Under the pieces are notes generated by a model that did no database searches, was not told where the DNA came from, and saw nothing but the letters and a program-made list of their open reading frames with translations. From a virus (lineage: Duplodnaviria > Heunggongvirae > Uroviricota > Caudoviricetes), in the IMG/VR virus record IMGVR_UViG_2874915312_000006: a stretch of 14,997 nt of DNA. One strand, given 5' to 3'. Shown here one piece after another: positions 14,030 to 14,430 of the stretch (the first letter of the stretch is position 1; each line of letters opens with the position of its first letter). A program made the translations under genes and the position numbers.

Positions 14030-14359
14030 TTAACTTTCGTTCAGCACACTAAACATCCCATCCCGCATCCCCTTAACTACCTGTTTAACCTGATAAAGTT
14101 CCTCCCGCAGTTCCTGCACCTCGTCACTGTCAGCGATGATGGTCAGGCCCCCCTCCGAAATCTTCACCGTGACACCCCGTCCGGTATCAAATCCGGCCTC
14201 TTTCAGCCAGTCGCCCTTAAGGTGCAGGCTGGGATGTTGTGAATAATACCGGGCTATACCGGTTTTGCGGTCCTGGTGGCGGGCTCTGACATAGCTGACT
14301 TTATAGCGGCGCTGTGTTTTGGAAATGGTGACTTCTGGCGTAATATCGTGTTCAGCCAT
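14030..14359 (-). CDS. SymE-family type I toxin (AbrB/SpoVT-fold, SOS-induced toxin family), 109 aa
   Basis: ...RYKVSYVRAR...PSLHLKGDWLKEAGFDTGRGVTVKISEGGLTIIA... aligns by eye with E. coli SymE (...RQLTVSYASR...[34 protein letters not shown]...). This is a paralogue, not symE itself. Confidence 0.75.
   Translation of the reverse strand: MAEHDITPEVTISKTQRRYKVSYVRARHQDRKTGIARYYSQHPSLHLKGDWLKEAGFDTGRGVTVKISEGGLTIIADSDEVQELREELYQVKQVVKGMRDGMFSVLNES
14319..14346 (+). promoter_or_regulatory. Predicted sigma-70 promoter driving an antisense transcript across the toxin start codon
   Basis: TTGGAA (14319-14324), 16-nt spacer, TAATAT (14341-14346), on the strand opposite the toxin gene. The predicted start near 14353 is just upstream of the toxin start codon (14357-14359) in plus-strand coordinates. 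Confidence 0.4.
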
Positions 14360-14430
14360 GATTAACTACCTTGATTAGTTGCTTGCGGGGAGCGCGCTTT
14401 CGTAATCTTGCCCTGCTAGCGGATTAACTT
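14354..14430 (+). ncRNA. Candidate SymR-like cis-antisense sRNA; 3' end not defined
   Basis: Inferred from the promoter above and from the known SymR/symE arrangement, where the antitoxin RNA overlaps the toxin RBS and start codon. I could not identify a terminator; the end coordinate is a placeholder. Confidence 0.25.

Follow-up and report, generated by a model that had tools for sequence, protein, structure and literature searches.

The closest described system is the symE–symR pair of Escherichia coli K-12, in which the RNA SymR is made antisense to the toxin gene and two silent changes in the −10 element of symR abolish SymR (Kawano, Aravind and Storz 2007, PMC1891008). The same study noted SymE genes in RHS neighbourhoods, which it also drew, and predicted that paralogues without an adjacent transcription factor are regulated by sRNAs, based on nucleotide conservation upstream of the start codon. 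Later genome papers describe SymE genes beside T6SS/Rhs clusters, without identifying the RNA there, and unexpressed SymE pseudogenes have been reported in Serratia (PMC7725324). Concerning the protein, K-12 SymE is now seen as a nucleoid-condensing DNA-binding protein and not as an RNase, according to the account of Thompson et al. (2022) given in a review (PMC11894785). Two further RNAs touch on this family. IsrA of Salmonella is a 423-nt antisense RNA of STM0294.1n, and the two are inversely expressed (Padalon-Brauch et al. 2008, PMC2330248); Ssr1 is known from Shigella flexneri 301 (Wang et al. 2016, PMC4782007; Rfam RF02627). In the literature on IsrA and Ssr1 we found no paper tying either of them to SymE. 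The E. coli RNA likewise called IsrA (McaS/IS061) is unrelated to Salmonella isrA.

We analysed a stretch of 14,997 nucleotides (the window) from an IMG/VR virus record (IMGVR_UViG_2874915312_000006). The features of the SymE locus near its end are presented in Table 1. Judged from sequence comparison, the locus is probably a rearranged copy of the Rhs-island-associated branch of SymE/SymR type I toxin–antitoxin systems, on a chromosome of the Shigella flexneri type, in which the antisense promoter has been conserved and the RNA gene truncated by H-repeat/ISAs1 recombination. Homologous to symE–symR, it belongs to a known system, of which it is an unremarkable and partly decayed representative.

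Table 1. Features of the SymE-family locus, with positions in the window, strand and basis or remarks
Feature	Position	Strand	Basis or remarks
Hairpin with T-runs on both strands, likely bidirectional terminator	13996..14014	.	Terminator scan and sequence; just 3′ of the toxin stop codon
SymE-family ORF, intact, 109 aa (MAEHDITPEVTISKTQRR...)	14030..14359	(-)	ATG start; ORF list, Pfam, homologues, pN/pS
Rfam isrA (RF01385) match	14160..14288	(+)	Antisense to toxin codons 24-67; 121.1 bits vs gathering score 51
-35 hexamer TTGGAA of the antisense (SymR-type) promoter	14319..14324	(+)	Within toxin codons 12-14
-10 hexamer TAATAT of the antisense promoter	14341..14346	(+)	Within toxin codons 5-7
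SymR-like antisense RNA gene, surviving 5′ part	14354..14385	(+)	Predicted +1 A14354; complementary to start codon 14357-14359 and Shine-Dalgarno
Toxin Shine-Dalgarno AAGGTAG	14366..14372	(-)	Read from sequence; within the stretch that the antisense RNA would cover
H-repeat/ISAs1-family (ISEc1-like) right-end remnant, 30 nt	14386..14415	.	Segment identities
Core ybgA upstream region, outside the SymE module	14416..14487	(+)	Includes CTG-N9-CAG 14465-14479

The 109-aa protein scores 71.8 bits with the Pfam family SymE_toxin (PF08845) over residues 16–75 (E = 4.9e-20; cut-off 29 bits) and aligns with the core of K-12 SymE at 41% identity, which confirms that the gene is a SymE-family paralogue, as the first-pass annotation had claimed. 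Almost all of its 430 homologues carry the name SymE family toxin, and the commonest close ones are the SymE family toxin of Shigella flexneri. An identical protein is present in Shigella-type assemblies, where it adjoins ybgA–phrB and IS1. A 95%-identical E. coli orthologue, named ‘SymE family type I addiction module toxin’ by NCBI, occupies the same ybgA-adjacent site in about 95–113 of 5426 complete E. coli genomes; in the E. coli orthologues with the same ybgA fusion the ORF is still 109 aa long. The pN/pS of the ORF against relatives is 0.3–0.6, and the Shine–Dalgarno block AACTACCT is kept in all paralogues compared. A profile search of the protein against PDB sequences, in which an AbrB/MazE-like swapped-hairpin fold was looked for, gave no match. 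The AlphaFold2 monomer model has a low pLDDT (55.7), and a Foldseek search gave no match with E < 0.5.

The two hexamers of the antisense promoter are found on the plus strand exactly where they had been placed in the first-pass annotation, with a spacer of 16 nt. Its description of this promoter as strong and near-consensus does not hold, as each hexamer matches the consensus at 4/6 positions (8/12 in all) and a promoter scan of 13900–14600 at a threshold of 9/12 reported none. A simple sigma-70 weight matrix assigns the site 9.3 bits, the 12th-best score when both strands of the window are counted, and shuffled windows contain 24 ± 3 equally good sites per window; the hexamers taken alone are no better than chance. 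Under the same matrix the experimentally proven K-12 symR promoter scores 8.0 bits, which is below the score of the site in the window. What makes the promoter credible is its homology and conservation in the register of K-12 symR, not the quality of its hexamers.

In K-12 (locus L002), the −10 element TAGAAT lies at 3823–3828, the SymR +1 at 3836 and the complement of the symE start codon (CAT) at 3839–3841. In the window and in K-12 alike, the distance from the −10 element to the CAT is 10 nt (14341–14346 and 14357–14359 in the window), and the predicted +1 is therefore A14354, the counterpart of the mapped SymR +1. The geometry of SymR/SymE that had been proposed for this locus is thus the right one: the promoter lies within the toxin ORF in the K-12 register and the RNA predicted from it is complementary to the start codon and the Shine–Dalgarno sequence. 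For the comparison across paralogues, 49 related loci were taken from species-representative genomes, and those with intact 5′ ends were anchored on the start codon. This gave 14 distinct paralogue 5′ ends, found in Escherichia, Citrobacter, Yersinia, Erwinia, Yokenella, Scandinavium, Enterobacter and Budvicia, with K-12 as the 15th sequence. The arrangement TTGG(A/T)A-16-TA(A/G/C)(T/A)AT is kept in the same register in 14/14 paralogue 5′ ends, all of them with the 16-nt spacer. The −35 element is TTGGAA in 12 of the 14 and TTGGTA in two, and K-12 differs; among all 15 distinct 5′ ends, the −10 element is TAATAT in eight, TAGAAT in six and TACAAT in one.

The N-terminal peptide encoded over this conserved promoter varies between paralogues (MAEHDITPE, MAERDSTPE, MAEKHSTAE, MAKTHSKAE and MAKHDCSSD). 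Among sequences with the majority residue, the fraction using the same codon is 0.93 in codons 2–18 and 0.75 in the rest of the ORF (Mann–Whitney p about 5e-5 to 6e-5); in the equally conserved protein core it is 73%, against 93% in codons 2–18. Synonymous differences in codons 1–18 number 0–2; against the more distant relatives L015 and L016 there are 0.5–2, compared with about 30 in codons 19–109. Part of the conservation in codons 1–18 could be due to gene conversion among the paralogues, which are not independent, instead of selection on the promoter.

Past the CAT, the intact copies contain GATTAACTACCT..TTAGTTGCTTGTGGTGAGCGG, followed by a hairpin of variable sequence and then by CCGCG(T/C)TAAATA; the 3′ end of K-12 SymR is of the same type. 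The alignment of the RNA comprises 15 sequences, namely 14 paralogue loci and K-12 SymR. Its consensus fold consists of a 14-bp 3′ hairpin preceded by a 5′ stem-loop that takes in the anti-start codon. Pairing is observed in 93.8% of the alignment cells, and compensatory double changes were counted at 12 pairs, of which 10 belong to the hairpin. In 500 shuffles the observed values were never reached on any measure, and pairing in slid controls is 28–56%. Read as antisense RNA, the alignment has 93.8% canonical pairs in this fold (75 G-U); read as toxin mRNA, it has 76.4% (7 G-U), so that the structure belongs to the antisense RNA and does not fit the mRNA strand. R1, a covariance model derived from the 15-sequence alignment, scores the intact copies at 68–93 bits and K-12 SymR at 68, whereas the Rfam symR model (RF01809) finds K-12 alone and misses the intact paralogues at its gathering threshold. 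By these comparative measures the predicted SymR-like RNAs form a real family, absent from Rfam, which has a covarying hairpin and extends over at least eight genera; in the intact relatives the antisense promoter would drive an RNA of about 75–80 nt ending in this 14-bp hairpin. A separate observation concerns the second SymE paralogue of E. coli SCU-113 (L001 1428–2194), which combines an upstream helix-turn-helix gene, oriented the same way, with a SymR-like RNA gene that is intact (R1 86.5 bits at L001 1716–1805). The SymE family thus allows control by a protein regulator to coexist with control by an antisense RNA.

In the window, only the first 32 nt or so of the SymR-like RNA gene survive. 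With nhmmer, positions 1–41 of the 94 of the family HMM align, to 14354–14394. R1 gives 31.9 bits, against 68–93 for the intact copies; its alignment lacks 28 positions of the hairpin, and in helix 1 of the surviving part two pairs are broken. Neither R1 nor nhmmer therefore finds a full-length RNA with the covarying 14-bp 3′ hairpin. The comparison with SymR by covariance, which had been suggested earlier as a check, came out negative with Rfam: RF01809 has no match in 13950–14520 even at E ≤ 10, with the K-12 positive control at 95 bits. The same truncation is present in every ybgA-adjacent copy (L001, L003–L008, L013, L014 and L025). A scan from 14354 to the ybgA ATG at 14488 detected no terminator-like site, and the fold of the 98-nt transcript is nothing unusual (z = 0.08).

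The DNA around the truncation is a mosaic. The region 14300–14385 is 94–98% identical to the intact paralogues (94–97% for 14354–14385 alone). The following segment (14386–14415) is 97% identical to the right end of ISEc1 in L011 and 83% identical to the ybfD–ybgA spacer of K-12; it comprises the last transposase codons, the stop codon and the terminal ..GCCCTG. The segment 14416–14487 is 89% identical to the K-12 ybfD–ybgA spacer. The whole of 14382–14487 is found in 5417 of the 5426 E. coli genomes, among them K-12 and the others that lack this SymE copy. As the right end of the H-repeat is fused to the DNA upstream of ybgA, both the RNA hairpin and the native upstream region of the toxin have been lost. 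The crossover zone between the SymR-like gene and the H-repeat lies at about 14382–14394, where the two share the similarity patch CTTG.GG.GAGCG. The simplest history would start from the ancestral order symE(−), SymR-like gene, H-repeat and ybgA, followed by a deletion that crossed over in this short patch. In E. coli FCI1, at a different chromosomal site, a paralogue has the order symE, SymR-like gene and then an ISAs1 element.

Two further observations concern H-repeat ends. The last 18 codons of the ISEc1 (H-repeat) transposase (L011 2500–2556) resemble the symE start/SymR-like 5′ region, with CAGCCATG..AACTACCT..CTTG.GG.GAGCGG. A deeper homology between the 3′ end of the ISEc1 transposase and the 5′ part of the SymR-like gene was considered and rejected: the signal is marginal (shuffle p 0.01–0.06), and both R1 and nhmmer miss it. 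The short and patchy similarity as such may have guided the crossover and deletion junctions. Also, the second SymE paralogue of S. flexneri (L055, the Ssr1 locus, about 2380–2620) keeps TTGGAA-16-TAATAT; ahead of the start codon it passes into a further remnant of an H-repeat right end (GGGGCTTTCGTAATCTAGCCCAG). S. flexneri thus has two independent junctions between a SymE 5′ end and an H-repeat end.

Concerning the regulation of the toxin itself, no CTG-N10-CAG occurs between 14360 and 14833. The best LexA heterology index in 14340–14520 is 23.9, which is worse than the shuffle mean (21.5) and compares with 7.7 for the K-12 symE box; these index values are approximate, as the weight matrix was made from a set of literature LexA sites (Lewis 1994; Fernandez de Henestrosa 2000). 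The earlier statement that the toxin has no canonical LexA box upstream therefore stands, for the weight matrix as for the motif. Among 15 paralogue upstream regions searched for LexA boxes none had a heterology index below 15, and the missing SOS (LexA) control appears, from these scans, to be a trait of the whole paralogue subfamily and not of this copy only. We also asked whether the CTG-N9-CAG at 14465–14479 might be the remains of a symE LexA box and rejected this, as it belongs to core ybgA DNA, is found in K-12 without this SymE copy and has an index of 26. In its own right, this sequence (CTGTATACCGTTCAG) forms an imperfect palindrome that precedes the ybgA start codon by 9 nt, its spacing falling short of that of a LexA box by one base; it is conserved in K-12 as CTGTAAACCGCTCAG. 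A search for a minus-strand toxin promoter upstream of the ORF gave nothing above 4.6 bits; this test has low power and missed the known K-12 symE promoter too.

The Rfam isrA match recurs in every paralogue ORF tested, and the model therefore tracks the antisense of the conserved SymE domain. In the Salmonella loci examined which have isrA matches, the SymE ORF is 5′-truncated and the SymR-like element is absent; IsrA is therefore not the SymR-type RNA. In two of the Salmonella loci (L061 and L063, about 2990–3060), the 5′ end of SymE is replaced by an Rhs core-repeat directly after ..TTGGAAATGGACACTTCTGGCG, so that the −35 element and the spacer are kept and the −10 element, start codon and SymR-like gene are lost. 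The junction is only a few nt away from the antisense promoter, at a place where recombination may recur. The Ssr1 model (RF02627) matches 13950–14329 partially, with 101 bits for the full model against a gathering score of 820. The model spans the whole 654-nt Shigella intergenic region, and its 3′ half is an unannotated SymE paralogue in antisense. The presence of Ssr1 proper in the window was rejected, as the RNA of about 150 nt (5′ end 286979, model about 131–280) has no counterpart there. Rfam isrA and Ssr1 thus largely model the antisense of SymE coding sequence, which calls for caution when these ‘sRNAs’ are annotated: in Enterobacterales, matches to the two models flag SymE paralogues, not independent sRNA genes.

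The rest of the window is IS-rich, Shigella-like DNA, with IS1 at 12997–13694. Two IS3-family copies (543–1873 and 11581–12899) are inverted, 99% identical and bracket about 9.7 kb, an arrangement resembling a composite transposon. Within this stretch there are more transposase genes of the IS3 family, as well as prophage head genes in truncated form (capsid, portal and terminase). An AT-rich ORF of 78 aa (13739–13975) without a Pfam family lies between IS1 and the terminator hairpin, in the position which Rhs immunity genes have in related loci. It is probably the remnant of an Rhs-associated immunity or orphan gene severed by IS1. In E. coli FCI1 and several Salmonella loci of the SPI-6 type (L010 1–4330; L061–L068; L069–L075), SymE-family genes mark the distal end of Rhs toxin C-terminus/immunity cassettes or separate successive cassettes; they are always convergent with these, and sometimes two SymE genes stand in tandem. 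Beyond the RHS neighbourhood drawn by Kawano et al. (2007), this regular placement of SymE genes along Rhs arrays does not seem to have been analysed so far. A bolder and quite unlikely extension would be that SymE/SymR-like modules are the regular punctuation of Rhs toxin–immunity arrays, that incoming Rhs cassettes and H-repeats use the 5′ region of these modules, with its antisense promoter and SymR-like gene, as a favoured joint for recombination, and that the window holds one such joint, with a relic antitoxin promoter pointing into ybgA–phrB (photolyase).

If the locus is a truncated SymE/SymR-type module, as we consider probable, transcription would begin near A14354, 3 nt within the ORF, and RNA polymerase would then cross the start codon and the Shine–Dalgarno sequence. 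The resulting RNA would pair with the translation-initiation region of the toxin mRNA, block ribosome binding and promote decay, as SymR does. Recombination with the right end of an H-repeat/ISAs1 element would have removed everything beyond about nt 32 of the RNA gene. The antisense RNA may be unstable without its 3′ hairpin and, having no terminator before ybgA, the transcript probably reads towards ybgA–phrB; the toxin, with neither a LexA box nor a recognisable promoter, is probably poorly expressed. The same promoter can also be read in another way. The ybgA ATG follows it on the same strand after 134 nt, no terminator-like site intervenes, and the same fusion is fixed in about 95–113 E. 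coli genomes and in Shigella. The promoter might therefore now mainly serve the ybgA–phrB operon, the transcript being a ybgA leader whose pairing with the toxin mRNA is incidental. However, some 5300 genomes without the promoter keep ybgA's own upstream region (14382–14487), so that ybgA does not need the promoter. We regard this role as possible, if rather unlikely; it is also compatible with a truncated SymE/SymR module and does not exclude it.

That the whole module is an inert relic, with hexamers kept by descent or gene conversion only, neither strand meaningfully expressed and the ORF decaying, would suit its surroundings of IS-riddled Shigella DNA (IS1, IS3-family copies and prophage remnants). 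Many relatives are frameshifted or 5′-truncated, the toxin has lost its native upstream region and has no promoter detectable by the low-power test, and the Serratia pseudogenes (PMC7725324) are a precedent. We nevertheless judge complete inertness unlikely, as the ORF is intact, its pN/pS is 0.3–0.6, its length is still 109 aa in the E. coli orthologues with the same fusion, and synonymous sites change less in the promoter region than in the protein core, which is conserved to an equal degree. The relevant antisense regulator could also be a long IsrA-type RNA over the body of the ORF (14160–14288) in place of a short SymR-type RNA at the start codon. The Rfam isrA match of 121 bits and the inverse expression of the 423-nt Salmonella IsrA and STM0294.1n (PMC2330248) would point that way; however, the presence of the match in every paralogue tested fits coding conservation better than a separate RNA gene, and the Salmonella isrA loci examined have 5′-truncated SymE ORFs and lack the SymR-like element. 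No promoter-like site was seen by eye before 14160, and the terminator at 13996–14014 separates the ORF from upstream plus-strand transcription. Such a regulator is very unlikely here.

For the locus in the window, which consists of an annotated SymE-family gene and a broken antitoxin gene, these results carry little weight. Their value lies in the comparison across paralogues: the promoter register, the frozen synonymous sites and the covarying hairpin provide comparative evidence for the 2007 prediction of SymR-type RNA control of Rhs-linked SymE paralogues, and the subfamily-wide absence of LexA control sets these paralogues apart from K-12 symE.

Among the described systems, IsrA/STM0294.1n of Salmonella Typhimurium resembles the locus in that the window scores above the isrA gathering threshold and IsrA is antisense to a SymE-paralogue ORF in an Rhs/T6SS island; it differs in that the match in the window lies inside the ORF and not over the start codon, and in that the Salmonella copies examined are 5′-truncated, without the SymR-like element. 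The Ssr1 locus of S. flexneri 301 shares with the window the SymE-antisense 3′ half of its model (13950–14329), and it differs by the Ssr1 RNA of about 150 nt, which is without counterpart in the window. Compared with symE–symR of K-12, the protein in the window is 41% identical over the core and has another N-terminus; the LexA box of K-12 is absent from the window; the −35 element is TTGGAA in the window and TTCTGC in K-12; RF01809 misses the RNA in the window, whose 3′ hairpin is deleted; and the locus is linked to Rhs/H-repeat DNA and not to the hsd/mcr region. What the two have in common is the PF08845 domain and an antisense promoter that lies in the toxin ORF in the same register; in the window the +1 is predicted, as in K-12, 3 nt within the ORF, and the predicted RNA resembles SymR in its complementarity to the start codon and the Shine–Dalgarno sequence. 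K-12 SymR also aligns with the RNAs of the intact paralogues.
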